Positions 1-32,305 of a stretch of DNA of 32,653 bases are shown one piece after another. The notes beneath the pieces are model-generated. The model saw only the letters and a program-made list of their open reading frames with translations, ran no database searches and had not been told where the DNA came from. Numbering within the stretch: position 1 is the stretch's first letter; the number at the start of each line of letters is the position of its first letter. Both the position numbers and the translations under genes were made by a program. The stretch is taken from IMG/VR virus record IMGVR_UViG_2541047739_000007; one strand, 5' to 3'. This stretch comes from a virus (lineage: Duplodnaviria; Heunggongvirae; Uroviricota; Caudoviricetes).

Positions 1-1164
1 TTACGCCTTCTTTATATCCTCCATAATTCCACAGTGGGACATATTTGGGACATTATCACCAAAAATGTCGTCTATTTTCCTTGCATGCTCTGTCAAATGA
101 TTAGGCGCAAGGTGAGCATACCTACGAACCATTTCTATGGACTCCCATCCGCCCATTTCCTGAAGCACAGATAATGGGACGCCTGACTGGATCAGCCAGC
201 TTGCCCAGGTGTGTCTGAGGTCATGGAAACGGAAATCTTCAATTCCTGCACGACGACAAGCTGATAGCCATGATGTCTTGCTGTCGATGCGCATCTTCCT
301 GACCGCAGGCGTTGATGTTCCATCTGCTCGCTTAGTCGCCTTGGTATGTACAAACACCCATTTGTGATGCTTGCCTATTTGATCACGCAACACTTTACAG
401 GCGGTATCGTTCAGCGCCACACCAATGGCGCGGTTTGATTTGCTCTCTTCTGGATTCACCCAGGCAACTCGTCGCTGCATGTCGATTTGTTGCCATTCCA
501 GATTTATGATGTTCGACTTTCTCAGACCAGTTGCCAGCGCAAACTTGACGACAGATTTCAGTGGTTCGGGGCACTCATCAATAAGGCGTTTTGCTTCCTC
601 CTTTTCCAGCCATCTGACTCGCTTGTTTCTGACCGCTGGTATCTTGATGACAGGCGCTTTTTCCAGCCACTTCCAGTCGCGTTCTGCAGCACGGAGAATG
701 GCCTTTATCATGGCAAGATGCTTTGCCTTTGTCTGAGTTGATACTGGCTTTGGTTCATAAACAGGCGGTTCTTTACCTTTCCTGATGGCGGCCTGAACTT
801 TCTGTTTCCATATTTCTTTCGTCTTTCTGTTATGCATTCTGCTTACAGCAGAGTAAATCTTTGCCTCCGAGATATCTTTAAGCCTTATACCCTCAAAATG
901 TTCAAGCCAGAACTCAATCCGGCTTTTATCTGAATCGAGAGATTTTTTATCAGCTTTTTCCTCAAGCCATCTTAGGCAGGCCTCTTCAAAAGTGACATCA
1001 GGTAAATCCCCTAGCTTTTCTACTCGCCAGAGTTCTGCTTTTCGCTTGTCGTGCAACTCCTGAGCTTGCCGCTTGTCCTTTGTGCCAAGAGATTCCTTAA
1101 TTCGTTTCCCGCCCGGGAGCGAATACGAGGCATACCATATTTCATTTCTGCGGAAGAGTGACAT
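1..1164 (-). CDS. int: Tyrosine site-specific integrase, P22/lambdoid type
   Basis: 387-aa ORF; N-terminus [34 protein letters not shown] resembles P22-family integrases; C-terminal HDLRHT...RYAHL tyrosine-recombinase signature; window begins at its stop codon, so att lies left of the window. Confidence 0.9.
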
Positions 1165-1391
1165 TTTCTTTCCTCTGTTATGCCATCACCCGCGCTCACC
1201 TGGACAGTATGCAGCGGAGACTGAAGCGCCGCAATGCAAGCTTGCCGTGTTGTGAGGTAAGGAGATTTTGGCTTGGTTGGATCTTTACGTGTTGCCTGTA
1301 GGCGGCCTGTTCGTATCCAGTTGGTGGCGGTTGGTCTGGATATCTTAAGAAACTGACAGGCCTCATCGAGTGTGAGGCTGTATGGCTCCAT
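1020..1391 (-). CDS. xis: Excisionase-like DNA-binding protein (Xis/AlpA-like), 3' end overlaps int start
   Basis: Start [31 protein letters not shown] (HTH) at 1391, translationally coupled (TAATG) to the upstream gene; position immediately upstream of int. Start choice within the longer 1020..1475 ORF is inferred. Confidence 0.6.
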
Positions 1392-1696
1392 TATTTCACC
1401 TCTTGCTGTGTCATTGTTGAAAAATGGATACCAGCTCGTTGCTGCCAGACGATCCAACCGAGAGTCATATCCCATGCCATGTATTCGTTATCGCCGTTTT
1501 TTACTCTCCGACGATCTACTAAGTCACCGAAACGCTTTTCCATGAATAATTCATAGGCTTCGCGTTCATCTGGCTCTACTTCCAGAGATACGAGTGCGAT
1601 TTCATAAGCACGGCGCTCAATATCGTCTCGAACCTCTAGGCTGCTGATTCGTTCTTTGATTTCTTTAATCAGTTCTTTATTGGTAAATGTGGTCAT
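1391..1696 (-). CDS. Hypothetical phage early protein, 101 aa (resembles CPS-53 YfdT from memory)
   Basis: ORF MTTFTNKELIKEIKERISSLEV...; stop overlaps xis start; part of a co-directional overlapping gene chain. Confidence 0.55.
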   Translation of the reverse strand: MTTFTNKELIKEIKERISSLEVRDDIERRAYEIALVSLEVEPDEREAYELFMEKRFGDLVDRRRVKNGDNEYMAWDMTLGWIVWQQRAGIHFSTMTQQEVK

Positions 1697-2058
1697 TATG
1701 CTCCAGCCTCCGGTGCTTTTGGCATTACTGCCCAGTGAGTGATATTGACGTTTTCAAGGTCCCCGACCTGAAATGTCCACTGCCATTCTCCGGTTTCTTT
1801 TTGTCCCCAGGTGTACCAGAGAGAACGCCAGCCAATCAGCCAGCCTTCTCCATTAGCATCAAATAACAGAACACTTTCATTTGCTGGTGGCAGTTCAGCT
1901 GACACTGGTATTATTTTGTTTTCCAGTGCCGCACATTTAGCTTCAAGCGCGTCGAATTTACGTAACAGGTACTCAGCATTTGTTTCATTCACTTTCAGAT
2001 CTCGCGGTACACATTTCCCGCGAAGAAACCCTTCCATTTCGAAAACATTCATGCGCAT
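1696..2058 (-). CDS. Hypothetical phage early protein, 120 aa (resembles CPS-53 YfdS from memory)
   Basis: ORF MRMNVFEMEGFLRGKCVPRDLKV...; tightly packed with neighbours on the same strand. Confidence 0.55.
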   Translation of the reverse strand: MRMNVFEMEGFLRGKCVPRDLKVNETNAEYLLRKFDALEAKCAALENKIIPVSAELPPANESVLLFDANGEGWLIGWRSLWYTWGQKETGEWQWTFQVGDLENVNITHWAVMPKAPEAGA

Positions 2059-2585
2059 TTGCGTAACTCCGATAAATCGTTAAAACGTTCCATAAACATC
2101 CCGTAGGCATGACCCGGTGCCAGTGGAATCACGTTGAACATCTCTGTTGCCGGGATGCCTTCCAGTACAGGCCAGAAAGAGCCATCATCAAGCCCGAGAT
2201 CGCGGCGTTCGGTTGCCAGCATGATGAGATCGGCATATTTCACGGGTGTACTCATAACTGGGGGTAACCCGTATTTCTCACGGATTACGGCGTCTATTTT
2301 TTCTTCCATCCGTTTATAGTCAGGAAGAAGGCGTTTCAGTGGTGCGGGAATGTCCTGGCAATACGCTTCTGTTGCATCATGCATTAACGCTTCAAAAGCA
2401 AATTCCTGCGGCACCAGCTGGCTGCAAAGAACCGCATGTTGGGCGACGCTGTAGAAGTGCGAAAGATGACCGGCAAAGCGACAGATATTTGAAAGGGAAA
2501 CCGCGATATCGTTAATATCGATGTCGTCTTTATTTATCTTGTCATAATAAAAATGCTTCCCGGAAAAAGTTTTAATAAATGACAT
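2049..2585 (-). CDS. HD-domain phosphohydrolase (YfdR-like 5'-deoxynucleotidase family)
   Basis: Start MSFIKTF preceded by GGAGA SD; contains an H...HD metal-binding motif (ALMHDATEA); about 178 aa. Confidence 0.7.
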   Translation of the reverse strand: MSFIKTFSGKHFYYDKINKDDIDINDIAVSLSNICRFAGHLSHFYSVAQHAVLCSQLVPQEFAFEALMHDATEAYCQDIPAPLKRLLPDYKRMEEKIDAVIREKYGLPPVMSTPVKYADLIMLATERRDLGLDDGSFWPVLEGIPATEMFNVIPLAPGHAYGMFMERFNDLSELRKCA

Positions 2586-2903
2586 TTTGTTCTCCACGTA
2601 TATGCACTGCACCGCGCTGAATTCTGGTAAAAGGAAGCCCTCACCATCCGGTGATTATTGAGTTAATTACGTTTCCATAAATGCCCCCGCAGGGGCATTT
2701 GCAGTAATGAAATCAGGCGGTGAAAGTACCAATAAAGGTTTCTACTTTGCTGTCTTTGAATTTCTCAACAAGCAGATCACGAAATTCGTTAGCCATTTCT
2801 TCCTGCACCGCTTCCAGCTGAATAATGCGCAGAACCAGTACAGGACGATCGCCAGTGATAATGCTGAGGCGTAATTTAAACGGACGTTCTTTCAGACCTT
2901 CAA

Positions 2904-2912
2904 ACGGAACGC
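2904..2912. repeat. IS1 target-site duplication, left copy (ACGGAACGC)
   Basis: Identical 9-mer directly abuts both IS1 termini. Confidence 0.9.
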
Positions 2913-2967
2913 GGTGATGCTGCCAACTTACTGATTTAGTGTATGATGGTGTTTTTGAGGTGCTCCA

Positions 2968-3243
2968 GTGGCTTCTGTTTCTATCAGCTGTCCCTCCTGT
3001 TCAGCTACTGACGGGGTGGTGCGTAACGGCAAAAGCACCGCCGGACATCAGCGCTATCTCTGCTCTCACTGCCGTAAAACATGGCAACTGCAGTTCACTT
3101 ACACCGCTTCTCAACCCGGTACGCACCAGAAAATCATTGATATGGCCATGAATGGCGTTGGATGCCGGGCAACAGCCCGCATTATGGGCGTTGGCCTCAA
3201 CACGATTTTACGTCACTTAAAAAACTCAGGCCGCAGTCGGTAA
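2968..3243 (+). CDS. insA: IS1 InsA (transposition inhibitor / N-terminal part of transposase)
   Basis: 91-aa [46 protein letters not shown]... recognised as IS1 InsA. Confidence 0.95.
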
Positions 3244-3665
3244 CCTCGCGCATACAGCCGGGCAGTGACGTCATCGTCTGCGCGGAAATGGACGAACAGT
3301 GGGGCTATGTCGGGGCTAAATCGCGCCAGCGCTGGCTGTTTTACGCGTATGACAGGCTCCGGAAGACGGTTGTTGCGCACGTATTCGGTGAACGCACTAT
3401 GGCGACGCTGGGGCGTCTTATGAGCCTGCTGTCACCCTTTGACGTGGTGATATGGATGACGGATGGCTGGCCGCTGTATGAATCCCGCCTGAAGGGAAAG
3501 CTGCACGTAATCAGCAAGCGATATACGCAGCGAATTGAGCGGCATAACCTGAATCTGAGGCAGCACCTGGCACGGCTGGGACGGAAGTCGCTGTCGTTCT
3601 CAAAATCGGTGGAGCTGCATGACAAAGTCATCGGGCATTATCTGAACATAAAACACTATCAATAA
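3162..3665 (+). CDS. insB: IS1 InsB reading frame (expressed as InsAB' transposase via -1 frameshift at A6C, 3219-3225)
   Basis: 167-aa frame ...[28 protein letters not shown]... recognised as IS1 InsB; TTAAAAAAC slippery run present. Confidence 0.95.
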
Positions 3666-3680
3666 GTTGGAGTCATTACC

Positions 3681-3689
3681 ACGGAACGC
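3681..3689. repeat. IS1 target-site duplication, right copy (ACGGAACGC)
   Basis: Identical to 2904..2912. Confidence 0.9.
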
Positions 3690-4379
3690 ATTTAAATTCA
3701 AATGCCACTGGCATAATGTCTTTGGTCTTCGCTTCGACAGACTCCATCAGGGAGCGTTTGCCGCTGAAGTCATTATCTTCAAAATCAGCGGTCTGGTTTG
3801 CTTCAATCGTGATTTTACGGACTGCCGCAGCCGCTTTTGTTGCCTGAATAGCGTCACCATTAGCATCAAAGCCCACAAGGTAGTCGGCCCAGTCTTCGAT
3901 CCATTCTGCCAGTGACTTCTGGGAGTTACGCTCGCCGTTAACAGACAACAGAGCAGAGAACGGTGCTGTCTTTTTCAGTTTGAGAGTGGCAGTGTTATCT
4001 GCGTGACCTGGCTCATCAATAGTACCCAGGTTAAGCACACTGACGGCACGCATATTATCGGCATCGATAAAGCAGCGGGTGCCTTCATCTGCAAGATCTT
4101 TAGAATAACGGGTAAAATCATCGATGCTGGCAGTGGAAAGTGCACCACGGAAACGGAAGCGATTTAAATTAAATTTTTCCAGATCATGAATGCGGAAATT
4201 CTCAGGCAATGCCACAGCATCGGCACCAATCTTACTGATAATTTCATTAACACCCTGAGCAGAAATAAGGGCATGGATTTGATTAATTGCGGTTGCGTCT
4301 AAGTTCTGAGACATAATAAGTCCTCACTATATAAAGATATTCAGTGATGAGATAAATAATCAGTTTATTACGAACGATA

Positions 4380-4742
4380 TTAACGACCTGCTGCGCGGAG
4401 TTTTCCGTCAGGTTCACCGGCAAGAGTCAGTAATTGTCCCTGGTCTTCCTGCAGAATAGTCAGGCGACCACCGCGATTGACATACATCGGCGTTTCGGTG
4501 GTGTCTTCTTCGGAAATTTTCCCGCGGTTAGTTGGGCGAACATATGAGAGTTTGTGTTTGATTTTCACACGGTTCTCATCAAACGGTTCGATTTCCAGAT
4601 TGAGTGAGACCTTCCCTTTGGTTTTCGTGTTCATCACACCGGAAGCGACCTCACTGAGAACTGCGCCGATTTTGGTTTCAAATACGCCGCCGTCCAGCTC
4701 CCCGATAAATGCCTGCACATCAGTACTGCGTTCGCTAGCCAT
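4380..4742 (-). CDS. Hypothetical phage early protein, 120 aa (resembles CPS-53 YfdP from memory)
   Basis: Start MASERSTDVQAFIGELDGGVF preceded by GAGGAG SD with 7-nt spacer; the longer track ORF starting at 4907 is probably an upstream over-extension. Confidence 0.6.
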   Translation of the reverse strand: MASERSTDVQAFIGELDGGVFETKIGAVLSEVASGVMNTKTKGKVSLNLEIEPFDENRVKIKHKLSYVRPTNRGKISEEDTTETPMYVNRGGRLTILQEDQGQLLTLAGEPDGKLRAAGR

Positions 4743-4791
4743 TTTGCTGCTCCTCATCATATCGACCCTGCAAGGTCGGTTGGTTTCTCCA

Positions 4792-4878
4792 CAAAACAGA
4801 GAAGAACACCTGCGGTGGCAGCCGCCCGGATGGATTGGGTTATGAGCCCGTCGTCCGGTGATGCTCTTCTCTGTTTTG
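4792..4878. repeat. 14-bp perfect inverted repeat (CAAAACAGAGAAGA / TCTTCTCTGTTTTG) flanking a 59-nt GC-rich spacer
   Basis: Arms at 4792-4805 and 4865-4878; the spacer has further local stems (GCGG...CCGC); sits about 50 nt upstream of the 4742 start codon. Confidence 0.6.
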
Positions 4879-4888
4879 CAAAAAAGGA

Positions 4889-4925
4889 CGGTACCAGCCG
4901 GAAGCAAGGGTACAAACTGGTACCG
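4889..4925. promoter_or_regulatory. 9-bp perfect inverted repeat CGGTACCAG / CTGGTACCG with 19-nt loop containing GGTACAAA; candidate leftward operator (oL-like) or RNA hairpin
   Basis: Arms 4889-4897 and 4917-4925; shares the GGTACA core with the palindrome between cI and cro. Confidence 0.4.
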
Positions 4926-5144
4926 CCAGGACTACACACAGCATAAAGTTGTGGTGCCGGGTGCCTCCCGGTGCCTGGCGAAGGTTGCACACCAGGCGGG
5001 TGGGTATCCACAGAAGGTCGACTGTCAGCCTCAACCTTAACCCGCGTGCGCTGAGCCGCATTCACCACAACGCTAAGGATTCTCTCTGGTTGAAAATACT
5101 TAGCTGTTATGTGCCTGCTTTTAGCCACATCAGGCGAGGTGGAC

Positions 5145-5198
5145 CTGGTTATTCCCCAACAACAAGGATTCGGTTAATCTGGATATCCCCAACAACAA
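5145..5198. repeat. Direct repeat pair CTGG(T/A)TAT(T)CCCCAACAACAA
   Basis: TCCCCAACAACAA at 5153-5165 and 5186-5198, 33 bp apart, immediately upstream of the 5215/5238 start. Confidence 0.6.
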
Positions 5199-5214
5199 TA
5201 AGAGTATTCAATGT

Positions 5215-5728
5215 GATCGCTGAATTAACGGCAGCAATGACGGCTATTCGTGAAACAGCCCAGATTGCAAAACTAATGAACGAGGCAAAAACTCAAGCTG
5301 AAGTAAATGCGGCTATTGGTGAGCTGAACTCAAAGCTTGCGTCTATTCAGCGCGAATGCGTGTCTCTCGTTGAACTGGTGGGCTCTTATCAAGAAATAAA
5401 TGCTTCTCTCAAAGCTAAAATTGCAGAATTCGAAAACTTTGAGGCTCAGACGGAAGGCTATATCCTTAACCAACTTGAGTCGGGTACTTTTGTATACTCG
5501 AAGGAGGTAATCGTGAACGGTGGCAGCATAACCATGCATCTTTGCCCAAAATGTTTTGGACAAAAGATAGTATCGATACTTCAACCATTCCCGGTTAGCA
5601 AAGATGAGCTTTTTCATAAAAGCAGGTGCCTCCACTGTGAAAATAAGTTTCTGATGAATAAAAATCCGGATTACGTATCGCCTCCATCCATTGAGGAGTT
5701 GTCCAGAAAACTTAACGGCAATCTGTAG
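5215..5728 (+). CDS. Orphan hypothetical protein: predicted coiled-coil N-terminus and C-terminal CxxC...CxxC zinc-ribbon
   Basis: AT-rich ORF between the leftward early operon and cI, on the opposite strand to both; start uncertain (GTG 5215 or ATG 5238, MTAIRETAQIAKLMNEAK...); CPKCFGQ...17 aa...CLHCENK; own terminator downstream. Confidence 0.5.
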
Positions 5729-5767
5729 ATTGCTACTGTTGTGGATATCCAGATTGTTAAAGAGCTA

Positions 5768-5791
5768 AGCGTCCTGTAGGGCGCTTTTTTG
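5768..5791 (+). terminator. Intrinsic terminator after the orphan gene
   Basis: AGCGTCC-TGTA-GGGCGCT stem-loop followed by TTTTTT. Confidence 0.6.
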
Positions 5792-5904
5792 TTGCTAATG
5801 AATCATCCTAGACTTCATATGCTCCAGGCGGCTACTTCGTGGGCGTCCTGCCTGTTTGTTGTTTCTCTTGGGTACATTATGTATCCCAAAGGCACATTGT
5901 CAAG

Positions 5905-5929
5905 TATAAAAAAACCTGCCGAAGCAGGT
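5905..5929 (-). terminator. Intrinsic terminator of cI (minus strand)
   Basis: ACCTGC-CGAA-GCAGGT hairpin 14 nt after the cI stop, followed on the minus strand by a 7-U run. Confidence 0.7.
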
Positions 5930-5942
5930 TCATAAACATTGA

Positions 5943-6617
5943 TTAGGCTTTGATTTTGTATCTTCTTGGTTTTCCTGAGAAAATCACAGTTCCAATTATA
6001 GAGCAATTACCGTTGATCTTAATGTAAGGCTCAGGCCAGTTTGGGTTTAACGCTTTGAGATAACGCTGTGTCCCATCTTCTATCAACCTTTTGAAGGTGG
6101 TTTCACCTGTATCGTGCATCAATGCAATAACGTCGTCACCGTGGCAGGCAGGTACTTCAGGATCGACAAAAATCATGTCTCCCGGGCGGTACTCATCAAT
6201 CATTGAATCACCTATCACCCGCAAGATATAAGTCATTTCCCCACAGGGTACAGGGCAGGGATACGTTTCTGCTGTGCTCAAATCAACCTCAGAATATCCA
6301 ACTTCTTTCCATGCTCCGGCCTGTACCCATGATATGACAGGGACTAATGTGATTTGTTTATTAGTGATTGAAACATCAGGTTTTTTTGTGATGTTCGTTG
6401 TCTGGTGTTCTTGATCGAGCCATCCGACAGGCAGGTCGAAACATTTTTCGATGTGTCGTGCCATGCTGTCACCGATATTTTTAGTAGCACCATCTCCCAT
6501 AAACCTGCTGGTCTGGGTTGGCTCGCGATCAATCATAGTGGCAAAGGAAGAATTCCCGCCAACACCATCTCTCAGTTTTCTGGCGTTAGACCGCCGGATG
6601 TCATGGATTGTTTTCAT
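5943..6617 (-). CDS. cI: CI-like prophage repressor with C-terminal S24 (LexA-like) self-cleaving peptidase domain
   Basis: 224 aa; C-terminal GDSM serine motif and downstream TFKRL lysine (Ser-Lys dyad); divergent from a cro-like gene. Confidence 0.85.
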   Translation of the reverse strand: MKTIHDIRRSNARKLRDGVGGNSSFATMIDREPTQTSRFMGDGATKNIGDSMARHIEKCFDLPVGWLDQEHQTTNITKKPDVSITNKQITLVPVISWVQAGAWKEVGYSEVDLSTAETYPCPVPCGEMTYILRVIGDSMIDEYRPGDMIFVDPEVPACHGDDVIALMHDTGETTFKRLIEDGTQRYLKALNPNWPEPYIKINGNCSIIGTVIFSGKPRRYKIKA

Positions 6618-6632
6618 AACGAAATTAAAACC

Positions 6633-6653
6633 CTTGTACCGTTAAGGTACAAG
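6633..6653. promoter_or_regulatory. Candidate operator: inverted repeat CTTGTACC-GTTAA-GGTACAAG
   Basis: 8-bp perfect arms with 5-bp spacer in the 90-bp cI/cro divergent region. Confidence 0.55.
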
Positions 6654-6657
6654 TATC

Positions 6658-6685
6658 TTGAAGGTTCATTTCAATCATGTAATAT
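6658..6685 (+). promoter_or_regulatory. Candidate rightward promoter (pR-like): TTGAAG-N16-TAATAT
   Basis: -35/-10 hexamers about 25 nt upstream of the GGAGG SD and cro ATG. Confidence 0.45.
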
Positions 6686-6707
6686 GTATACCGGAGGTAC
6701 ATATTGT

Positions 6708-6908
6708 ATGAAAGCGTATTGGGACTCTTTAACCAAAGAACAGCAGGGCGAGTTGGCCGGAAAAGTTGGCTCAACACCTGGCTACTTACGGCTGGTTTTC
6801 AATGGCTATAAAAAAGCCAGTTTTGTGCTGGCTAAAAAACTTGAGCAATGCACGTCAGGTGCAATTACGAAATCTGACTTAAGACCGGATATCTATCCGA
6901 AAGATTAG
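6708..6908 (+). CDS. cro: Cro-like small HTH regulator
   Basis: 66-aa ORF MKAYWDSLTKEQQGELAGKVGSTPGYLRLVFNG... with GGAGG SD; divergent from cI. Confidence 0.7.
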   Translation: MKAYWDSLTKEQQGELAGKVGSTPGYLRLVFNGYKKASFVLAKKLEQCTSGAITKSDLRPDIYPKD

Positions 6909-6939
6909 CAGAACACTTTCAATTTTTAACCACAGAACG

Positions 6940-7509
6940 ATGAGGCTAATCGTGGGTAAGCATCACTGGAAAATAGAAAAACAGCCTGAGTGGTACGTGA
7001 AAGCTGTCAGAAAAACTATCGCGGCGTTGCCGGGTGGTTACGCTGAAGCGGCTGACTGGCTCGATGTAACAGAAAACGCTTTATTCAACCGCCTTCGTGC
7101 AGATGGCGATCAGATTTTCCCGCTGGGATGGGCAATGGTTTTACAGCGTGCTGGTGGCACTCATTTCATTGCTGATGCTGTGGCGCAGTCTGCAAATGGC
7201 GTCTTTGTGTCTCTTCCTGACGTCGAGGATGTGGACAACGCCGATATTAACCAGCGTCTGCTGGAAGTCATTGAACAGATCGGCAGTTATTCAAAACAGA
7301 TTCGTTCAGCAATCGAAGACGGTGTAGTGGAACCGCATGAGAAGACAGCAATTAACGACGAGCTGTATCTCTCAATTTCGAAGCTGCAGGAGCATGCAGC
7401 ACTTGTCTACAAAATTTTTTGCATTTCAGAAAGTAATGACGCCCGCGAGTGTGCAGCTCCGGGCGTCGTGGCGTCGATTGCTTCTGGTTGTGGAGAAACT
7501 AACGCATGA
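6940..7509 (+). CDS. Putative CII-like / YdaT-like regulatory protein
   Basis: 189-aa ORF directly after cro; alternative GTG start at 6952 has a better SD; family assignment from position and weak motif resemblance only. Confidence 0.4.
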
Positions 7510-7864
7510 ACAGTTTAACAACACACTACCGTCGCTCGCAACTGATTGCGCTTCCTGTACCGGGTGGAAAAGCGAAGGTGGAATATTGCTATGCAGTGAA
7601 TGTACCAGGTGACAGGGAAATTGTAACCCACAGCTTTGCAGAGTGGGCTGTGGGGGATTTCAACCGGCAGAAGGAGACAGTCCTTTGCGACAAGTTAACC
7701 GCTGGTTCAAAGATCACTACGGAGTGCCCGTCAGAGTCATTCGTTGGGAACCGGAAACACAACGGGTTATCTACCTCCGCGAAGGCTATGAGCATGAGTG
7801 CTTCAGTCCGCTCGAACAGTTTCGTCGTAAATTCAGGGAAATAGAGGTCGGTCATGAGCACTAA
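7506..7864 (+). CDS. Hypothetical protein, apparently frameshifted: frame-A N-terminus (7506..~7655) continues in frame B (7613..7864)
   Basis: Frame-A C-terminal tail is low-complexity while the overlapping frame-B ORF looks protein-like and ends overlapping the next gene start; a GGGGG run at 7652-7656 is the likely shift point. Confidence 0.4.
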
Positions 7865-8795
7865 ATTAACCGGCTATGTATGGGATGGTTGCGCAGCGTC
7901 AGGCATGAAATTATCCAGCGTGGCAATTATGGCCCGCCTGGCTGATTTCAGTAATGACGAAGGTGTGTGCTGGCCATCGATTGAAACCATTGCCCGCCAG
8001 ATTGGCGCGGGGATGAGTACAGTCAGAACGGCTATCGCACGGCTGGAAGCAGAAGGCTGGTTAACGCGTAAGGCGCGTCGCCAGGGTAACCGCAATGCGT
8101 CGAATGTTTATCAGCTTAACGTTGCGAAGCTTCAGGCTGCGGCATTTTCTCAACTGTCAGATTCTGACCCGTCAAAATCTGACGCATCAAAATCTGACCC
8201 GTCAAAATTTGATGCGTCGAAATCTGGCAAAAAAGCGGGTTTTCACCCGTCAGAATCTGGCGGGGATCCGTCAGTAAAATCAAAACATGATCCGTCAGAT
8301 AAAAAACCTTCTCGTCCGGACGCTTCGCAACCGGACACGCAGACGGCTGAACAGGATTTTTTAACTCGCCATCCTGATGCGGTTGTATTCAGCCCTAAAA
8401 AGCGCCAGTGGGGGACGCAGGATGATTTGACCTGCGCACAGTGGCTCTGGAAAAAAATCATCGCCCTGTACGAGCAGGCTGCCGAATGTGACGGCGAGGT
8501 GGTTCGTCCCAAAGAACCGAACTGGACAGCCTGGGCAAACGAAATTCGCCTGATGTGTGTGCAGGATGGTCGTACTCACAAACAAATCTGCGAGATGTAC
8601 AGCCGCGTCAGCCGCGATCCGTTCTGGTGCCGTAACGTGCTCAGCCCGTCGAAGCTGCGGGAAAAATGGGATGAGCTTTCCCTGCGCTTATCGCCGTCCG
8701 TAAGCACGTACACCGAAAAACGCGAAGACCCGTACTTCAAAGCCAGTTACGACAACGTGGACTACAGCCAGATCCCGGCAGGATTCAGGGGGTAA
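7854..8795 (+). CDS. Replication initiator (lambda O-like organisation: N-terminal winged-helix, acidic/serine linker, C-terminal domain)
   Basis: 313 aa; iteron array lies inside the linker-coding region (SDSDPSKSDASKSDPSKFDASKSGKK); position downstream of cro/CII-like genes. Confidence 0.7.
   Translation: MSTKLTGYVWDGCAASGMKLSSVAIMARLADFSNDEGVCWPSIETIARQIGAGMSTVRTAIARLEAEGWLTRKARRQGNRNASNVYQLNVAKLQAAAFSQLSDSDPSKSDASKSDPSKFDASKSGKKAGFHPSESGGDPSVKSKHDPSDKKPSRPDASQPDTQTAEQDFLTRHPDAVVFSPKKRQWGTQDDLTCAQWLWKKIIALYEQAAECDGEVVRPKEPNWTAWANEIRLMCVQDGRTHKQICEMYSRVSRDPFWCRNVLSPSKLREKWDELSLRLSPSVSTYTEKREDPYFKASYDNVDYSQIPAGFRG
8164..8223. repeat. Four tandem 15-bp iterons (TCTGACCCGTCAAAA family), candidate replication origin, with degenerate copies to about 8300
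   Basis: TCTGACCCGTCAAAA / TCTGACGCATCAAAA / TCTGACCCGTCAAAA / TTTGATGCGTCGAAA in register, then an A-rich tract and more CCGTCAG copies. Confidence 0.7.
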
Positions 8796-8797
8796 TC

Positions 8798-9286
8798 ATG
8801 AGTCTTTTGAATGAAGTTCAGAAATTCATTGAAGCCCATCCGGGGTGTACTTCCGGAGACATTGCGGATGCTTTTGCAGGTTACTCACGGCAGCGCGTTC
8901 TGCAGTCAGCAAGCAAGTTACGTCAGAGTGGGCGTGTGGCTCACCGTTGTGAAGGGGATACACGCAGACATTTCCCGCGCCTGACTGAGAGAGCGCAGGA
9001 GCCGGAACCACAACCAGTTCGTGAAACCAGACCTGCGCGCAATTTCTATGTCGGCACTAACGATCCACGGGTAATTTTGTGCCTGACCCGCCAGGCTGAA
9101 GAACTGGAGTCCAGGGGCTTATACCGTCGTGCTGCAACCGTGTGGATGGCGGCATTCCGTGAAAGCCACTCCCAACCAGAACGAAACAATTTTCTGGCGC
9201 GTCGTGAGCGGTGTTTACGGAAAAGCAGCAAGCGCGCTGCATCGGGTGAAGAGTGGTATCTGTCAGGGAATTACGTGGGGGCTTAA
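8798..9286 (+). CDS. Hypothetical protein in the replication module (possible helicase-loader or regulatory role)
   Basis: 162-aa ORF immediately after the initiator; stop overlaps the next start (TAATG). Confidence 0.45.
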   Translation: MSLLNEVQKFIEAHPGCTSGDIADAFAGYSRQRVLQSASKLRQSGRVAHRCEGDTRRHFPRLTERAQEPEPQPVRETRPARNFYVGTNDPRVILCLTRQAEELESRGLYRRAATVWMAAFRESHSQPERNNFLARRERCLRKSSKRAASGEEWYLSGNYVGA

Positions 9287-9939
9287 TGAGTAATAAATAT
9301 TGCCAGGCGCTGGTGGAACTGCGGAACAAACCAGCCCATGAACTGAAGGAAGTGGGCGATCAGTGGCGCACGCCGGACAACATTTTCTGGGGAATTAACA
9401 CCCTGTTTGGCCCGTTTGTTCTGGATCTGTTCACTGACGGTGATAACACCAAATGTGCTGCGTATTACACGGCGGAAGACAACGCGCTGGCGCATGACTG
9501 GTCAGAACGTCTTGCGGAGCTTAAAGGTGCTGCCTTTGGTAATCCCCCATACAGCCGCGCCAGTCAGCATGAGGGGCAATACATCACAGGCATGCGTTAC
9601 ATCATGAAGCATGCCAGTGCCATGCGTGATAAAGGCGGGCGCTATGTTTTCCTGATCAAAGCTGCCACCAGCGAAGTGTGGTGGCCGGAAGATGCAGATC
9701 ATATTGCTTTTATTCGCGGGCGTATTGGTTTTGAACTGCCTGCCTGGTTTATCCCGAAAGATGAGAAGCAGGTGCCGACAGGCGCTTTCTTCGCTGGTGC
9801 TATTGCTGTTTTCGACAAGACCTGGAAGGGACCGGCAATCAGCTACATCGGGCGCGATGAACTTGAGGCATGTGGTGAGGCGTTTCTGGCGCAGGTTCGC
9901 CAGCAGGCGGAAAAACTGGTCAGGGAGATGGCGGCATGA
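9286..9939 (+). CDS. Phage N6-adenine DNA methyltransferase (Dam-like)
   Basis: Start MSNKYCQAL coupled to the upstream stop; catalytic GNPPYS (NPPY) motif. Confidence 0.8.
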   Translation: MSNKYCQALVELRNKPAHELKEVGDQWRTPDNIFWGINTLFGPFVLDLFTDGDNTKCAAYYTAEDNALAHDWSERLAELKGAAFGNPPYSRASQHEGQYITGMRYIMKHASAMRDKGGRYVFLIKAATSEVWWPEDADHIAFIRGRIGFELPAWFIPKDEKQVPTGAFFAGAIAVFDKTWKGPAISYIGRDELEACGEAFLAQVRQQAEKLVREMAA

Positions 9940-10262
9940 CGACGTTAACTCAATGCCAGCAGCAGGTGCTGGATATGCTGATTTCTTATCAGAAAGAACG
10001 TGGCTTCCCGCCAACCAATCAGGAGGTGGCAACCATGCTGGGATACCGTTCAGTGAATGCAGCGGTGGAGCATCTTCGCGCACTGGAGAAAAAAGGCGTC
10101 ATCACGATAAAGCGTGGTGTGGCCCGGGGGATCACGCTTCATACCGTGGTGAAGGACGACGACAGCGAGGCGGTCGGGATTATCCGCTCACTGCTTGCCG
10201 GTGAGGAAAACGCCAGGCTGCGTGCAGCCCACTGGTTACATGAGAGGGGCCTGAAAGTATGA
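9936..10262 (+). CDS. LexA DNA-binding-domain-only protein (no S24 peptidase domain)
   Basis: 108 aa; MTTLTQCQQQVLDML...GFPPTNQEVATMLGYRSVNAAVEHLRALEKKGVITIKRGVARGITL aligns along its length with the LexA N-terminal winged-helix domain; the ORF ends before any peptidase domain. Confidence 0.7.
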   Translation: MTTLTQCQQQVLDMLISYQKERGFPPTNQEVATMLGYRSVNAAVEHLRALEKKGVITIKRGVARGITLHTVVKDDDSEAVGIIRSLLAGEENARLRAAHWLHERGLKV

Positions 10263-10654
10263 AGTTGATCCTACCTTTTCCGCCCAGCGTGAACACGTAC
10301 TGGCGACACCCCAACAAAGGGGCGTTTGCTGGTAAGAGCCTGATAAGCGCGGCGGGGCGAAAATTCCAGAGCGCGGCGTGTGCAGCAATAGTTGAGCAGT
10401 TACGTCGTCTGCCGAAACCAACGTCGGCACCTGCTTCAGTGGAGATCGTGTTGTTTCCTCCGGATAACCGGATCCGCGATCTGGACAACTATAACAAGGC
10501 GCTGTTTGACGCCCTGACCCACGCGGGTGTGTGGGAAGACGACAGTCAGGTGAAAAGAATGCTGGTGGAGTGGGGACCGGTTATCCCGGAGGGGAAGGTC
10601 GAGATCACTATCAGTAAGTACGAAAAAGCGAGTTGCAAATTAGCAACTCGGTAA
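10259..10654 (+). CDS. rusA: Holliday-junction resolvase RusA
   Basis: 131 aa; PPSVNTYWRH...DLDNYNKALFDALT motifs characteristic of RusA. Confidence 0.85.
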   Translation: MKLILPFPPSVNTYWRHPNKGAFAGKSLISAAGRKFQSAACAAIVEQLRRLPKPTSAPASVEIVLFPPDNRIRDLDNYNKALFDALTHAGVWEDDSQVKRMLVEWGPVIPEGKVEITISKYEKASCKLATR

Positions 10655-10699
10655 CGGAATTGAGCAACACCCTAAATTTGGGTATTACCTCGTTAAAGA

Positions 10700-10719
10700 T
10701 ACTGTATTTATGAACAGTG
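10700..10719. promoter_or_regulatory. Candidate LexA (SOS) box TACTGTATTTATGAACAGTG
   Basis: CTG-N10-CAG with AT-rich centre; close to consensus TACTGTATATATATACAGTA; in the 160-bp gap upstream of the KilA-N gene. Confidence 0.65.
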
Positions 10720-10816
10720 TATCCTTGATAACTATTAAAAATCGCAGTAAGTTCATCCTGCATCAACGAAAAGGGAGTGCAGTCCCGCTCGTGGATAAAA
10801 ATTTGTGGAGAAACCA

Positions 10817-11632
10817 ATGAATCAGTTGCTTGTAATTGATGGCGTTTCTGTGCGCCAGTACTTCGAATCTAACTACTGTCTTAACGACCTTCAGAAAGCA
10901 GCTCTTCTTGCCGCTGGTGAGAATCGCTCCTCCCGTTCGCTGGAAGTTCACGAGTTTATGCGTCGTCCTGAAACGAAGGCTCTTGTGGAATTATTGGAAG
11001 AAGAAACTACGGGAGATTCCCGTAGTATTCCTGTCATCACCATTCAGGGGCGCAATGGTGGGACGTATGTCTGTAAAGAGCTGGTCTATGCATATGCAAT
11101 GTGGATCAGCCCGGCATTCAGCTTAAAAGTGATACGTACTTTTGATGCGCTTCATAATTCATCACCAGAAGAAACCACATCCGACAAAATTAAATCCGGG
11201 GTCATTCTGCTTGAATCAGCAGCAAAGACTCTAAATCTGTCAAACTCCTCGAAACTTGGTGCATACCAGAAATTATCAAAGGTAGCTGGTCTTCCTGAAC
11301 TTATGCCGATCTATGCCATTGATGCACCTGCTGATGCGCCAGATGGTTCAAGCCGCCCTACGCTGTCGCTGAGTGCACTGCTGAAGCAGTATGGTATCCG
11401 CCTGACGGCTAATCAGGCATATCACCAGATGGCGAAGCTGGGGATCGTTGAACAACGCGAACGATACAGCCGTACCGCGATTAACAACATCAAAAAATTC
11501 TGGTCGCTGACCGCGAAAGGCTGCATGTTCGGCAAGAACATCACCAGTCCTGCAAATCCGCGCGAGACGCAGCCGCATTTCTTCGAATCCCGATTTCCTG
11601 AGCTGTTAAAGCTGCTCGATACCGTTCATTGA
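10817..11632 (+). CDS. KilA-N domain protein (candidate SOS-controlled antirepressor)
   Basis: Start MNQLLVIDGV with GGAGA SD; KilA-N/APSES-like core (GGTYVCKELVYAYAMWISPAFSLKVIRTFD); about 272 aa. Confidence 0.65.
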   Translation: MNQLLVIDGVSVRQYFESNYCLNDLQKAALLAAGENRSSRSLEVHEFMRRPETKALVELLEEETTGDSRSIPVITIQGRNGGTYVCKELVYAYAMWISPAFSLKVIRTFDALHNSSPEETTSDKIKSGVILLESAAKTLNLSNSSKLGAYQKLSKVAGLPELMPIYAIDAPADAPDGSSRPTLSLSALLKQYGIRLTANQAYHQMAKLGIVEQRERYSRTAINNIKKFWSLTAKGCMFGKNITSPANPRETQPHFFESRFPELLKLLDTVH

Positions 11633-11633
11633 G

Positions 11634-12629
11634 GTGACCGTGAGAGCACTACTGACCCCTGAAATTGCCCCGCGTATGGGGATCGTATTGTTCAGGCCAG
11701 GTTCAGAGCTGATGCCCCTGTTTATGCAGGGGCGTGTCCTGCTGGAGCCTGAGCCGGAGCGTTATTCATCTTTCGCCAGTGGTGCCGTTCCGGCGGCATC
11801 ACAACCGCTGGCGGATGATCCTGCCGTTCGGGCCGTGTTCCGCCATGAGGCAGTGATCCGTCGTGCTGGTGGCGTGGAATGTCTTGAAAGCTGGTTACTT
11901 CGTGAAAAAGGCTGCCAGTGGCCTCATTCCGGATGGCACAGCGAGAACATGACCACAATGCGACACGCTCCGGGTGCAATCCGTCTGTGCTGGCACTGCG
12001 ATAACCAGCTGCGCGATCAGTTCACGGAACGGCTGGAATCAATGGCAACGGATAACTGTGCCCGCTGGGTGTTGTCTGTTGTGCGTCGGGATCTCGGTTT
12101 TGATGACAGTCACGTTGTGACAATGCCGGAACTGTGCTGGTGGCTGATTCGTAATGACCTGGCGGATGCCTTACCGGAAAGTGCAGCCCGTAAGGCACTG
12201 AGATTACCGAAGCCTGTTGTGCCGTCTGTCACCCGGGAAAGTGACCTTGTGCCTTCGGTTCCTGCCACCAGCATCATCCAGGATAAAGCGAAAAAGGTGC
12301 TGGCGCTGAAAGTGGATCCGGAGTCGCCGGAGTCTTTTATGTTACGCCCAAAACGTCGCCGCTGGGTTAATGAAAAGTACACGCGCTGGGTTAAGACGCA
12401 GCCGTGCGCATGTTGTGGAAAGCCTGCTGATGATCCCCACCACCTGATAGGCCACGGTCAGGGGGGAATGGGTACAAAAGCGCATGACCTCTTCGTGTTG
12501 CCTTTGTGCAGAAAGCATCACGACGAGCTGCATGCGGATACCGTGGCATTTGAAGAGAAGTATGGCTCCCAGCTGGAGCTGATATTTCGTTTTATCGATC
12601 GCGCACTGGCGATTGGTGTGCTGGCCTGA
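11634..12629 (+). CDS. DUF968-like protein with C-terminal HNH-like Cys/His motif
   Basis: 331-aa ORF (GTG start); C-terminus [18 protein letters not shown]...[10 protein letters not shown]. Confidence 0.55.
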
Positions 12630-12646
12630 TTTTGTGGAGAAAGTTA

Positions 12647-13030
12647 ATGCGTGATATTCAGATGGTTCTTGAACGTTGGGGAGCGTGGGCGGCTAATAAT
12701 CATGAAGATGTGACCTGGTCGTCCATTGCCGCCGGTTTTAAGGGATTAATTCCTTCAAAAGTAAAATCTCGCCCGCAATGTTGTGACGATGACGCGATGA
12801 TCATTTGCGGGTGCATGGCCCGTCTGAAAAAGAACAACAGCGATTTACACGATTTATTAGTAGATTATTATGTATGTGGTATGACATTCATGTCACTGGC
12901 AAGTAAGCATTGCTGCTCGGATGGTTATATCGGGAAAAGGTTACAGAAGGCTGAGGGCATAATTGAAGGGATGTTAATGGCATTAGATATCCGGTTAGAT
13001 ATGGATATCGTTGCTAATAATTCTAATTGA
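12647..13030 (+). CDS. Late-gene antiterminator, Q-like
   Basis: Start [11 protein letters not shown] with GGAGA SD; Cys-rich ([12 protein letters not shown]); position between nin-type genes and the lysis cassette. Confidence 0.55.
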
Positions 13031-13218: not shown

Positions 13219-14301
13219 TTAGAACTGATAAACCAGACCTACAGCGACGATGTCGTCGGTATCAATACCAGCTGTTTTGGTAAACTTACTATCGTCAATT
13301 AAGTTGATTTTGTAATCAACAAAAGTGGACATGTTTTTATTAAAGTAGTAAGTAGCACCGACATCGACATACTTGACTAAGTCTCGGTCACCATGAACAC
13401 CAAGGTCTTTACCTTTTGACTGAAGGTAAGCAACAGATGGACGCAGACCGAAGTCAAACTGATATTGTGCTACTGCTTCAAAGTTTTGTGCTTTGTTTGC
13501 AATATGGTTATTACCAAAAACGGTCATATTCTGAGTTTCAGAATATGTGGTAGCCAGATAGATATTGTTCGCATCATATTTCAGGCCTGCAGCCCATACT
13601 TCCGCATTTTTGCCGGAGGCATTGAATTTGCTCTTACCATAGGCGACCTGACCGTCAGTGCGATCTGATTTAGCATAGGTTGCACCCACGCCGAATCCTT
13701 CATACTCATAAGTAGTGGAGAAACCGAAACCATCACCATTGGCTTCAGTTACGTCAGTGCGGTCATTTTTACCCTGATACTGAGCAGCAAAGTTCAGGCC
13801 ATCGACCAGACCAAAGAAGTCGTTGTTACGATAAGTTGCAACACCAGTAGTGCGACCAGTCATGAACACATCTGTTTGGGTCCAGGTATCACCACCGAAT
13901 TCTGGCAGGACGTCAGTCCACGCACCGATGTCGTATGCTACACCGTAGTTACGGCCGTAATCGATTGAGCCGTAATCACCAAATTTCAGGCCTGCAAATG
14001 CAAGACGGGTTTTGTCTTTGGAAGAACCTTGAGATTCAGCACGGTTGCCTTTGAATTCATATTCCCACTGACCGAAACCAGTCAGTTGATCGTTGATTTG
14101 GGTTTCACCTTTGAAGCCAAGACGGGCATAAGTAGTATCACCATCATCTGCATCATTAGAGGAGAAGTAGTGCTTGGCATTAACTTTCCCGTATAGATCC
14201 AGCTTGTTACTGTCTTTATTATAAATTTCAGCTGCCTGAGCAGACATCGCCATCAGTACTGATGCAGCTACAGCAGAAATTGCCACTGTTAATTTTTTCA
14301 T
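13219..14301 (-). CDS. nmpC: OmpC/OmpF-family outer-membrane porin (prophage-borne NmpC/Lc type)
   Basis: 360 aa; signal peptide [23 protein letters not shown]; porin C-terminus ...VGLVYQF; on the opposite strand between Q and the lysis genes. Confidence 0.9.
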
Positions 14302-16990: not shown

Positions 16991-17475
16991 CCATTACAAA
17001 GCCTATCTACGGGTGGGCTTGATAATGGCTTATACCCTACACGGGATAACTTAACTGATATCCCTTTTAAAGGATAAAGGTATTCAAGCCTGACACATCA
17101 TGCGCTGTATCGTCGCCGTGTTCCCGTATTAACAGAGACCGTAGCCCGACGGGGAACTCCTTCTGCGCGAGTGTGCGGGAATAATCAAAAACGATGCACA
17201 CCGGGGTTACCGGGTACACATATTTCATCATGCCAGCGAGTCCGGTTCTGGCACGGAAGAAACCGGACGTTATGATTTAGTGCGGAAATATTTGTGTAGT
17301 GTTCTGAATGTTCTCAGTAAAGAGTAATGAATTATCAAAGGTATAGTAATACCTTTTGTTTTCGTGGATATTTGTAATCCATCTGAAAACCCCTGCTGTA
17401 GCAAGATTTTTCCTGTATTCGTAAAATGATAACTCTCCTGATTTGAATCCTTTTAAGGTGGCTTCTATAAGGCAT

Positions 17476-17688
17476 TTATTTTTTTGAAAATCTTACATTT
17501 ACAACCTTACCCTGTCCTTTTATTAAAACCGTATTATCGTTTTCAAGAACAAGATGAATATTCTCTGTGGCTAAATAGTAAATGTAATGTGAGACATTGT
17601 GACGTTTTAGTTCAGAATAAAACCAGTGATAGTTTAAATTATTTCGCACTTTATCGAATATTTGTTTAAAAATGGCAACCTGAGCCAT
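17476..17688 (-). CDS. Hypothetical small protein (70 aa) in AT-rich DNA, downstream partner of the RHH gene
   Basis: Start [14 protein letters not shown] with GGAAGG SD; compositionally distinct from its surroundings. Confidence 0.4.
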
Positions 17689-25784: not shown

Positions 25785-26138
25785 GTGGCTGATTTCGATA
25801 ACCTGTTCGATGCTGCCATTGCCCGCGCCGATGAAACGATACGCGGGTACATGGGAACGTCAGCCACCATGACATCCGGTGAGCAGTCCGGTGCTGTGAT
25901 ACGTGGTGTTTTTGATGACCCTGAAAATATCAGCTATGCCGGACAGGGCGTGCGCGTTGAAGGCTCCAGCCCGTCCCTGTTTGTCCGGACTGATGATGTG
26001 CGGCAACTGCGGCGTGGAGACACGCTGACCATCGGTGAGGAAAACTTCTGGATAGATCGTGTTTCGCCGGATGATGGCGGAAGCTGTCATCTCTGGCTTG
26101 GGCGGGGCGTACCGCCTGCCGTTAACCGTCGCCGCTGA
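25785..26138 (+). CDS. FII: Head-tail connector FII
   Basis: MADFDNLFDAAIARADETIRGYMGTSA..., lambda gpFII. Confidence 0.9.
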   Translation: MADFDNLFDAAIARADETIRGYMGTSATMTSGEQSGAVIRGVFDDPENISYAGQGVRVEGSSPSLFVRTDDVRQLRRGDTLTIGEENFWIDRVSPDDGGSCHLWLGRGVPPAVNRRR

Positions 26139-26149
26139 AAGGGGGATGT

Positions 26150-26728
26150 ATGGCCATAAAAGGTCTTGAGCAGGCCGTTGAAAACCTCAGCCGTATCAGC
26201 AAAACGGCGGTTCCCGGTGCCGCCGCAATGGCCATTAACCGCGTTGCGTCATCCGCGATATCGCAGTCGGCGTCACAGGTTGCCCGTGAGACAAAGGTAC
26301 GCCGGAAACTGGTAAAGGAAAGGGCCAGGCTGAAAAGGGCCACGGTCAAAAATCCGCAGGCCAGAATCAAAGTTAACCGGGGGGATTTGCCCGTAATCAA
26401 GCTGGGTAATGCGCGGGTTGTCCTGTCCCGCCGCAGGCGTCGTAAAAAGGGGCAGCGTTCATCCCTGAAAGGTGGCGGCAGCGTGCTTGTGGTGGGTAAC
26501 CGTCGTATTCCCGGCGCGTTTATTCAGCAACTGAAAAATGGCCGGTGGCATGTTATGCAGCGTGTGGCCGGGAAAAACCGTTACCCCATTGATGTGGTGA
26601 AAATCCCGATGGCGGTGCCGCTGACCACGGCGTTTAAACAGAATATTGAACGGATACGGCGTGAACGTCTTCCGAAAGAGCTGGGCTATGCGCTGCAGCA
26701 TCAACTGAGAATGGTAATAAAGCGATGA
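26150..26728 (+). CDS. Z: Tail completion protein
   Basis: MAIKGLEQAVENLSRISKTAVPGAAAMAINR..., lambda gpZ. Confidence 0.9.
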   Translation: MAIKGLEQAVENLSRISKTAVPGAAAMAINRVASSAISQSASQVARETKVRRKLVKERARLKRATVKNPQARIKVNRGDLPVIKLGNARVVLSRRRRRKKGQRSSLKGGGSVLVVGNRRIPGAFIQQLKNGRWHVMQRVAGKNRYPIDVVKIPMAVPLTTAFKQNIERIRRERLPKELGYALQHQLRMVIKR

Positions 26729-27120
26729 AACATACTGAACTCCGTGCAGCCGTACTGGATGCACTGGAGAAGCATGACACCGGGGCGACGCTTTTTGATG
26801 GTCGCCCCGCTGTTTTTGATGAGGAAGATTTTCCGGCAATTGCCGTTTATCTCACCGGCGCTGAATACACGGGCGAAGAGCTGGACAGCGATACCTGGCA
26901 GGCGGAGCTGCATATTGAAGTTTTCCTGCCTGCTCAGGTGCCGGATTCAGAGCTGGATTCGTGGATGGAGTCCCGGATTTATCCGGTGATGAGCGATATC
27001 CCGGCACTGTCAGATTTGATCACCAGTATGGTGGCCAGTGGCTATGACTACCGGCGCGACGATGATGCGGGCCTGTGGAGTTCAGCCGATCTGACTTATG
27101 TCATTACCTATGAAATGTGA
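26725..27120 (+). CDS. U: Tail terminator protein
   Basis: [31 protein letters not shown]..., lambda gpU. Confidence 0.9.
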
Positions 27121-27127
27121 GGACGCT

Positions 27128-27868
27128 ATGCCTGTACCAAATCCTGTAATGCCGGTGAAAGGTGCCGGGACCACCCTGTGGGTTTATAAGGGGAGCGGTG
27201 ACCCTTATGCGAACCCGCTTTCAGACGTTGACTGGTCGCGTCTGGCAAAAGTTAAAGACCTGACGCCCGGCGAACTGACCGCTGAGTCCTATGACGACAG
27301 CTATCTCGATGATGAAGATGCAGACTGGACTGCGACCGGGCAGGGGCAGAAATCTGCCGGAGATACCAGCTTCACGCTGGCGTGGATGCCCGGAGAGCAG
27401 GGGCAGCAGGCGCTGCTGGCGTGGTTTAATGAAGGTGATACCCGTGCCTATAAAATCCGCTTCCCGAACGGCACGGTCGATGTGTTCCGTGGCTGGGTCA
27501 GCAGCATCGGTAAGGCGGTGACGGCAAAGGAAGTGATCACCCGTACGGTGAAGGTCACCAATGTGGGTCGTCCGTCAATGGCAGAAGAACACAGTACGGT
27601 GACGGCGGCAACCGGTATGACCGTGACGCCAGCCAGCGCTTCCGTAGTGAAAGGGAAGAGCACCACGCTGACCGTGGCATTCCAGCCGGAAGGCGCAACC
27701 GACAAGAGCTTCCGTGCGGTGTCAGCGGATAAAACAAAAGCTACCGTGTCGGTCAGTGGTATGACCATCACCGTGAATGGCGTTGCTGCAGGTAAGGTCA
27801 ACATTCCGGTCGTATCCGGTAATGGTGAGTTTGCTGCGGTTGCAGAAATTACCGTCACCGCCAGTTAA
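27128..27868 (+). CDS. V: Major tail tube protein
   Basis: [33 protein letters not shown]..., lambda gpV with C-terminal Ig-like domain. Confidence 0.9.
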
Positions 27869-27883
27869 TCCGGAGAGTCAGCG

Positions 27884-28306
27884 ATGTTCCTGAAAACCGA
27901 ATCATTTGAACATAACGGTGTGACCGTCACGCTTTCTGAACTGTCAGCCCTGCAGCGCATTGAGCATCTCGCCCTGATGAAACGGCAGGCAGAACAGGCG
28001 GAGTCAGACAGCAACCGGAAGTTTACTGTGGAAGACGCCATCAGAACCGGCGCGTTTCTGGTGGCGATGTCCCTGTGGCATAACCATCCGCAGAAGACGC
28101 AGATGCCGTCCATGAATGAAGCCGTTAAACAGATTGAGCAGGAAGTGCTTACCACCTGGCCCACGGAGGCAATTTCTCATGCTGAAAACGTGGTGTACCG
28201 GCTGTCTGGTATGTATGAGTTTGTGGTGAATAATGCCCCTGAACAGACAGAGGACGCCGGGCCCGCAGAGCCTGTTTCTGCGGGAAAGTGTTCGACGGTG
28301 AGCTGA
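27884..28306 (+). CDS. G: Tail assembly chaperone G
   Basis: MFLKTESFEHNGVTVTLSELSALQRIEHLALMKRQ..., lambda gpG; slippery site near the 3' end. Confidence 0.9.
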   Translation: MFLKTESFEHNGVTVTLSELSALQRIEHLALMKRQAEQAESDSNRKFTVEDAIRTGAFLVAMSLWHNHPQKTQMPSMNEAVKQIEQEVLTTWPTEAISHAENVVYRLSGMYEFVVNNAPEQTEDAGPAEPVSAGKCSTVS

Positions 28307-32300: not shown

Positions 32301-32305
32301 ATCCC

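Follow-up and report, generated by a model that had tools for sequence, protein, structure and literature searches.

An IS1 insertion flanked by an intact 9-bp target duplication splits yfdQ in a PhiR49_1-like lambdoid prophage

A complete IS1 element was found within yfdQ, a gene of the early-left block of a prophage, in the 32,653-nucleotide stretch of DNA analysed here (the window). The element is bounded by two copies of a 9-bp target-site duplication, and the insertion is a simple IS1 transposition product that has not been rearranged since. In the best overall explanation, to which we give a probability of approximately 0.9, an IS1A-type IS1 would have transposed into codon 212 of yfdQ in a PhiR49_1-like lambdoid prophage located at argU, with a likely polar effect on the downstream genes, inheritance of the allele within a lineage, and a role as an initial step in prophage decay. 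The kind of event is already known; it is a textbook simple insertion, and it is already annotated in a public genome, that of E. coli AF3. The features of the locus, and of the other IS1 insertions found close to the equivalent site in other E. coli genomes, are listed in Table 1.

Table 1. Features at the interrupted yfdQ locus, its leftward neighbours, and IS1 insertions at window-equivalent positions in other genomes.
Feature	Position	Strand or orientation	Remarks
Left 9-bp target-site duplication copy, ACGGAACGC	2904..2912	.	direct-repeat match
Complete IS1, 768 bp	2913..3680	+	insA rightward, opposite to yfdQ
IRL, GGTGATGCTGCCAACTTACTGAT	2913..2935	+	inverted-repeat pair with IRR
insA, 91 aa, IS1 repressor and N-terminal transposase part	2968..3243	+	Pfam Zn_ribbon_InsA and HTH_Tnp_IS1, full length
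insB' reading frame, DDE catalytic part	3162..3665	+	Pfam DDE_Tnp_IS1 1-131 of 131, E 2e-78
A6C motif AAAAAAC, -1 programmed frameshift site yielding InsAB'	3219..3225	+	motif in sequence
IRR, ATCAATAAGTTGGAGTCATTACC	3658..3680	+	inverted-repeat pair with IRL
Right 9-bp target-site duplication copy, ACGGAACGC	3681..3689	.	direct-repeat match
Truncated yfdQ ORF, 212 aa	3676..4314	-	211 native residues + Trp, ends ...KCVPW*
Orphan 3' part of yfdQ	2713..2912	-	codons 212-274, stop, duplicated 9 nt
yfdP, immediately upstream of yfdQ	4380..4742	-	PF27127 YfdP
yfdR, HD-domain 5'-deoxynucleotidase, first gene downstream of insertion	2049..2585	-	100% identical to PhiR49_1
yfdS-like gene (DUF551), downstream	1696..2058	-	annotation and profile matches
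yfdT, downstream	1391..1696	-	annotation in AF3, PhiR49_1 counterpart
Excisionase-family ORF (xis)	1020..1391	-	phrog_2907 2-117 of 117; Pfam HTH_17; overlaps int by 145 nt
IntD-type tyrosine integrase (int)	1..1164	-	profile match and annotation
IS1 in TCM_B_2	about 2136		yfdR 3' part
IS1 in TO6	2497-2505	opposite orientation	in yfdR
IS1 in UPEC_U013	2564-2572		9-bp duplication
IS1 in JB2	2591-2599		9-bp duplication
IS1 in CE0007a	2637-2645		9-bp duplication
IS1B in strain 2-1	2791-2799	opposite orientation
IS1 in APEC E16002, E18006, ZJ3920	IRL joined after 2889		other side is terminase-region DNA
IS1 in 23AR0998	IRL joined after 2901		other side is fdrA

Many E. coli genomes contain copies, annotated as 'IS1-like element IS1A family transposase', that match the inserted element at 100% identity along all 768 bp. 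Comparison with the IS1A of K-12 MG1655 showed 767 of 768 nucleotides to be the same; the sole mismatch, at IS1 position 444 (G versus T), corresponds to a Ser to Arg change in InsB. The variant at position 444 is itself common, with 100% matches present in many genomes. The element was described in the initial annotation as a complete 768-bp IS1 with both terminal inverted repeats, and this was borne out by its length, which is exactly 768 bp, and by the presence of IRL and IRR. The two ends are imperfect inverted repeats that agree at 18 of 23 positions, with the GGTGATG... and GGTAATG... sequences expected for IS1. The published hallmarks of IS1 include a length of 768 bp, a duplication of 8 or 9 bp, and the A6C motif (PMC12428005). 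All of the sequence-based characteristics of IS1 were identified here, comprising the length, the inverted repeats, insA and insB' with the A6C site, and the target duplication. The identical IS1 of AF3 is annotated as a programmed-frameshift transposase across the window equivalent of 2968-3665. The 32.6-kb window contains only this one copy of IS1.

Staggered cleavage of the target followed by repair would generate a 9-bp duplication. A perfect duplication had been proposed from the sequence, and ACGGAACGC was confirmed on both sides of the element at exactly the positions given; re-inspection of the flanking 9-mers revealed no difference between them. There are no further plus-strand copies of ACGGAACGC in the window, one reverse-complement copy lies at 25708, and a single copy is present at the empty site of PhiR49_1. 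A chance repeat is opposed by the probability of agreement between 9-mers at two fixed positions, which is 4^-9 (~4 × 10−6). An assembly artefact is similarly opposed by the presence of identical junctions in the independent complete assemblies AF3 and GCA_964055605.1, with the left junction also present in SCU-172 and MSB1_4I. The recurrence of the junctions in other assemblies effectively refutes both readings, and we regard their probability as negligible. The related proposal, that the element arrived by transposition and was not rearranged later, was likewise upheld, as the duplication is intact and both flanks line up without rearrangement, at 100% identity, with the empty sites of PhiR49_1, Ecol_448, and KK19-02.

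The insertion cuts YfdQ to 211 native residues followed by one Trp, and strands the last 63 codons of the gene. The Trp codon of the truncated ORF is read from IS1, and the stop codon lies three codons inside the element, at 3676-3678. No ORF of at least 40 aa was listed for the orphan 3' part (2713-2912). In-silico excision of 2913-3689 produced a minus-strand ORF of 274 aa, in agreement with the initial annotation that the two halves of a YfdQ-like gene rejoin in frame, and no stops were present in the restored ORF. The restored YfdQ matched Pfam DUF2303 (PF10065) at positions 2-269 of 269 (E 2 × 10−92) and phrog_210 at positions 1-274 of 274 (E 3 × 10−120). A restored 1600-nt query built from both flanks was present at 100% identity, as one uninterrupted piece, in PhiR49_1/PhiR49_1_star and in E. 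coli Ecol_448 and KK19-02, and the uninterrupted gene at the matching empty sites is annotated as yfdQ. These intact sites provide the comparison with uninterrupted homologous prophages that had been suggested as a check.

The only solved relative of the restored protein was PDB 9o7m ('YfdQ Protein', 274 aa, 36 chains), with an E-value of 1 × 10−44. The large 9o7m assembly hints at an oligomeric function for the YfdQ family. A literature search for a paper describing the 9o7m structure found none. YfdQ and YfdP are functionally uncharacterised in phages (PMC12315714). Work on the CPS-53 genes has shown that yfdQ is needed for a multicopy replication-inhibition phenotype, that overexpression of YfdQRST inhibits DnaA-dependent initiation (oriC), and that YfdR bound DnaA (PMC4776307).

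The window is collinear with phage PhiR49_1 throughout, at 99.97% identity across 1-2912, 99.1% across 3681-26183, and 97.7% across 26131-32653. The IS1 and one repeat copy represent the only large difference between the two. The 48 PhiR49_1 genes that were checked were all intact in the window except for yfdQ and a ybcV-like gene. The latter (DUF1398; 17277-17688, minus strand) carries a 1-nt insertion that breaks the frame, and measures 412 nt versus 411 nt. This frameshift is common to the window, SCU-172, and MSB1_4I (100%) and is absent in AF3 and PhiR49_1, a distribution that makes it a useful lineage marker. PhiR49_1 appeared to carry different genes between yfdP and cI; this was found to be a difference in annotation only, the DNA being collinear. 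A literature search on 'PhiR49' found nothing.

In relatives, the prophage adjoins tRNA-Arg and fimZ, with 15 bp between the start of the window and the tRNA-Arg gene. Based on these flanks, the prophage is assigned to the argU tRNA-Arg gene of E. coli, which is the DLP12 site. The window also carries a moron, an intact gene for an OmpC/NmpC-type porin of 360 aa (13219-14301, minus strand), which separates the Q antiterminator gene from the lysis genes; DLP12 has the same arrangement.

The interrupted allele is present in other genomes. Both junctions were found in E. coli AF3, in which RefSeq reports two DUF2303 pseudogene halves around an IS1A transposase. AF3 and the window are 99.65% identical, with 110 substitutions over 32.6 kb in addition to the difference in the ybcV-like frameshift. 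The same structure of IS1 in yfdQ was present in GCA_964055605.1, with one mismatch in 10.3 kb. Proteins identical to the 212-aa truncated YfdQ are recorded in 324 blocks of public assemblies, for the most part on short contigs that stop at IS1; the allele is therefore carried by many isolates and marks a frequently sequenced E. coli lineage.

Two sister genomes carry a deletion next to the same element. SCU-172 and MSB1_4I are 100% identical to the window across 1-3680 and then pass straight from the IRR end to window position 13021, ten bases before the end of quuD. The missing 9,340 bp (3681-13020) include the 5' part of yfdQ, yfdP, the cI-like and cro-like genes, the replication genes, and Q (quuD). 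Such a structure would result from adjacent deletion promoted by IS1; recombination with another IS1 copy, since lost, would give the same outcome. All parts of the IS1 at 2913-3680 are intact, and the deletion at the same copy in these two genomes suggests activity, so that the element is probably still active. The shared IS1 copy and the shared ybcV-like frameshift suggest that the window represents the undeleted stage of the same lineage. The allele appears to be stably inherited in a lineage, with the same IS1 copy later removing the adjacent 9.34 kb in the two sister genomes, and in the light of that later deletion the window would show the first step of IS-driven prophage decay.

The sharing of the junctions by AF3 and the window, together with their 110 substitutions over 32.6 kb and the frameshift difference, points to divergence or to segment exchange. 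It could be explained by the import of the IS1 allele, either through homologous recombination with a prophage that already carried it or through lysogenisation by such a prophage, and a PhiR49_1-like genome of ~46 kb with IS1 would probably still fit a lambda-type head. However, all carriers have the prophage at one chromosomal site (argU), as vertical descent would predict, and import would leave the identity of the feature unchanged, as the duplication still records a single original transposition. We consider import improbable and favour inheritance within the lineage.

The neighbourhood of the insertion is conserved, with the order yfdP-yfdQ-yfdR(-yfdS-yfdT) present in the RefSeq/GenBank annotation of AF3 and PhiR49_1. 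Homologues of yfdR, yfdQ, and yfdP are common early-left operon members of lambdoid phages (PMC12315714). All genes from yfdR to int are on the minus strand; yfdR and yfdS overlap, yfdS and yfdT abut, as do yfdT and xis, and xis overlaps int. This tight spacing suggests one transcription unit. The sequence of xis in the window is probably intact. At the equivalent of 1020-1391 in AF3, SCU-172, and others, RefSeq reports just a 63-66-nt 'incomplete HTH' pseudogene.

Several candidate regulatory elements were noted around this block. The spacer between yfdQ and yfdR (2586-2712, minus strand) contains a perfect 9-bp GC-rich hairpin, AAATGCCCC-TGCG-GGGGCATTT, and a second stem, with a fold z-score of -3.2; the hairpin is perhaps a weak terminator or an RNA-stability element. 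Just upstream of yfdP, an STnc100-like element (4878-5101, minus strand) ends in a hairpin and U-run. The Rfam STnc100 match covered the full model length, with 40.3 bits (below the gathering score of 47) and an E-value of 3 × 10−7, and the 358-nt region with the element had a fold z-score of -4.7. RefSeq reports a 'frameshifted hypothetical protein' at this site. STnc100 has been related to PasD prophage sRNAs in a 2026 preprint. At gathering thresholds, Rfam gave no matches in the whole window, and a tRNA scan of the window found no tRNA. A 19-nt inverted repeat (5176-5194 and 5737-5755, and also 5001-5012), 95% complementary and with the palindromic core TGGATATCCA, flanks a plus-strand ORF (5213-5728; phrog_1244) between yfdP and the cI-like repressor. 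Such repeats might act as operators, or they might mark the termini of a small cassette.

The position of the insertion, inside a gene with the co-directional, tightly spaced genes yfdR, yfdS, yfdT, xis, and int downstream, makes polarity a concern. Transcription running leftward would reach IS1 at its IRR end and read insAB' in antisense. As translation stops three codons inside IS1 and the RNA beyond is untranslated and C-rich, the ~770 nt past the yfdQ stop should permit Rho-dependent termination. The C/G ratio of the antisense IS1 RNA is 1.2-1.5 from 3643 to 3254 (~400 nt). Classical genetics describes IS1 as strongly polar, by way of Rho, whichever way it is inserted. Rho-dependent terminators have been predicted in silico in IS1A (PMC8595720), and this prediction was the only item on IS1 polarity and Rho found in open-access sources. 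Once the operon is on, the expression of yfdR, yfdS, and yfdT would drop, and possibly that of xis and int too. On balance, we lean towards polarity on yfdR, yfdS, and yfdT. Polarity toward xis and int is mechanistically plausible and fits the gene anatomy; a measurable effect on excision appears somewhat doubtful.

The insertion could instead be phenotypically neutral, amounting to the loss of a dispensable accessory gene, with yfdR-T, xis, and int expressed from internal promoters or by antiterminated transcription. A K-12 strain lacking yfdQRST showed no phenotype in growth, replication, or hydroxyurea tests under the conditions used (PMC4776307); neither YfdQ nor YfdP has a known phage function (PMC12315714); and the spread of the truncated allele across 324 blocks suggests that it carries no strong cost. 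A consensus promoter scan located no convincing promoter for the leftward block and none feeding yfdQ. The only strong minus-strand promoter-like site (5903-5876) is 1.1 kb upstream, on the far side of an opposing ORF, and the STnc100-like element with its terminator-like end, situated between this site and yfdP, suggests that transcription into yfdQ may already be limited or regulated. The stable hairpin region in the yfdQ-yfdR spacer likewise lowers confidence in a polar effect. The xis and int genes may have their own promoters, as int has in lambda, and processive antitermination, if used on the leftward transcript, would suppress the polarity of IS1. However, the overlapping and abutting genes suggest a single transcription unit, the consensus scan found no outward promoter on the IS1 minus strand, and neutrality sits poorly with the classical polarity of the element. 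A neutral insertion is a realistic possibility to which we give slightly less than even odds, and a polar effect on yfdR-T remains our preferred reading.

IS1 was also found at neighbouring positions in other E. coli genomes. Including the insertion described here, at least nine apparently independent IS1 events were identified between window equivalents ~2136 and 2912, and three of the junctions (2889, 2901, and 2912) lie inside a 24-bp stretch and share one orientation. This pattern could mean that the yfdR-yfdQ junction is a hot spot for IS1 or a target of host selection, with repeated hits silencing YfdQRST and/or locking the prophage in place; the requirement for yfdQ in multicopy replication inhibition (PMC4776307) would be in keeping with such selection. 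A comparable probe for the 5' two-thirds of yfdQ found no IS1 among the matches listed, but it also failed to recover AF3, a known positive. Ascertainment is biased, as the other sites came from queries built around the window insertion, and the clustering is only a lead. The junction queries for neighbouring intervals (IS1 end plus flank) were effective only in IS1-poor genomes, and the counts were small, at 1, 3, and 0 per 580-nt interval among the matches listed. Furthermore, IS1 is present at ~75,000 places in 5,426 genomes, and some recurrence is expected in a gene of ~3,000 genomes; a moderate local AT richness is also in line with the regional preference known for IS1, with no need to invoke selection. 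We therefore think it unlikely that a hot spot or selection underlies these insertions. It is equally unlikely, in our estimation, that the yfdQ 3' end and the yfdQ-yfdR junction form a recurrent IS1 target that serves as the first step of a repeatable route of prophage domestication. If this were true, the order of domestication would be the silencing of YfdQRST and damping of xis/int, after which a deletion promoted by IS1 would take out the adjacent immunity, replication, and Q region. The first stage would then be seen in the window and AF3 and the second in SCU-172 and MSB1_4I, with 23AR0998 and the APEC/ZJ3920 genomes as parallel cases.

The simple insertion, which we continue to favour, is of little consequence except for annotation: what are labelled 'DUF2303 pseudogenes' on either side of IS1 are the two parts of a single, recently split yfdQ. 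In other respects the prophage is nearly a copy of PhiR49_1, a deposited phage genome. The empty site, the simple insertion, and the IS1-adjacent deletion nevertheless form a natural series at the locus, which could be used to mark the lineage and to examine whether an IS in the early-left operon impairs prophage excision.

The interrupted gene resembles yfdQ of the CPS-53 (KplE1) cryptic prophage and of the early-left clusters of lambdoid phages (SfV, SfIV, ST64B, and PhiR49_1), with a full-length match to DUF2303/phrog_210 and the same yfdP-yfdQ-yfdR-yfdS-yfdT order. The DNA of the restored yfdQ region is 98% identical in SfIV and SfV and 100% identical in PhiR49_1. Unlike yfdQ of CPS-53 and the lambdoid clusters, the gene in the window is split after codon 211. 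The element itself resembles IS1A/IS1E of E. coli K-12 (IS1 family) in its length, inverted repeats, insA, insB', A6C site, and 9-bp target duplication. The deletion in SCU-172 and MSB1_4I is one-ended and begins exactly at the IRR end, as do IS1-mediated adjacent deletions. The prophage shares its attachment site (tRNA-Arg next to fimZ) and an intD-type integrase with DLP12 of E. coli K-12, itself a case of IS-driven decay at argU. DLP12 is, however, a heavily deleted remnant, whereas the prophage in the window is essentially complete, with only yfdQ and the ybcV-like gene broken.
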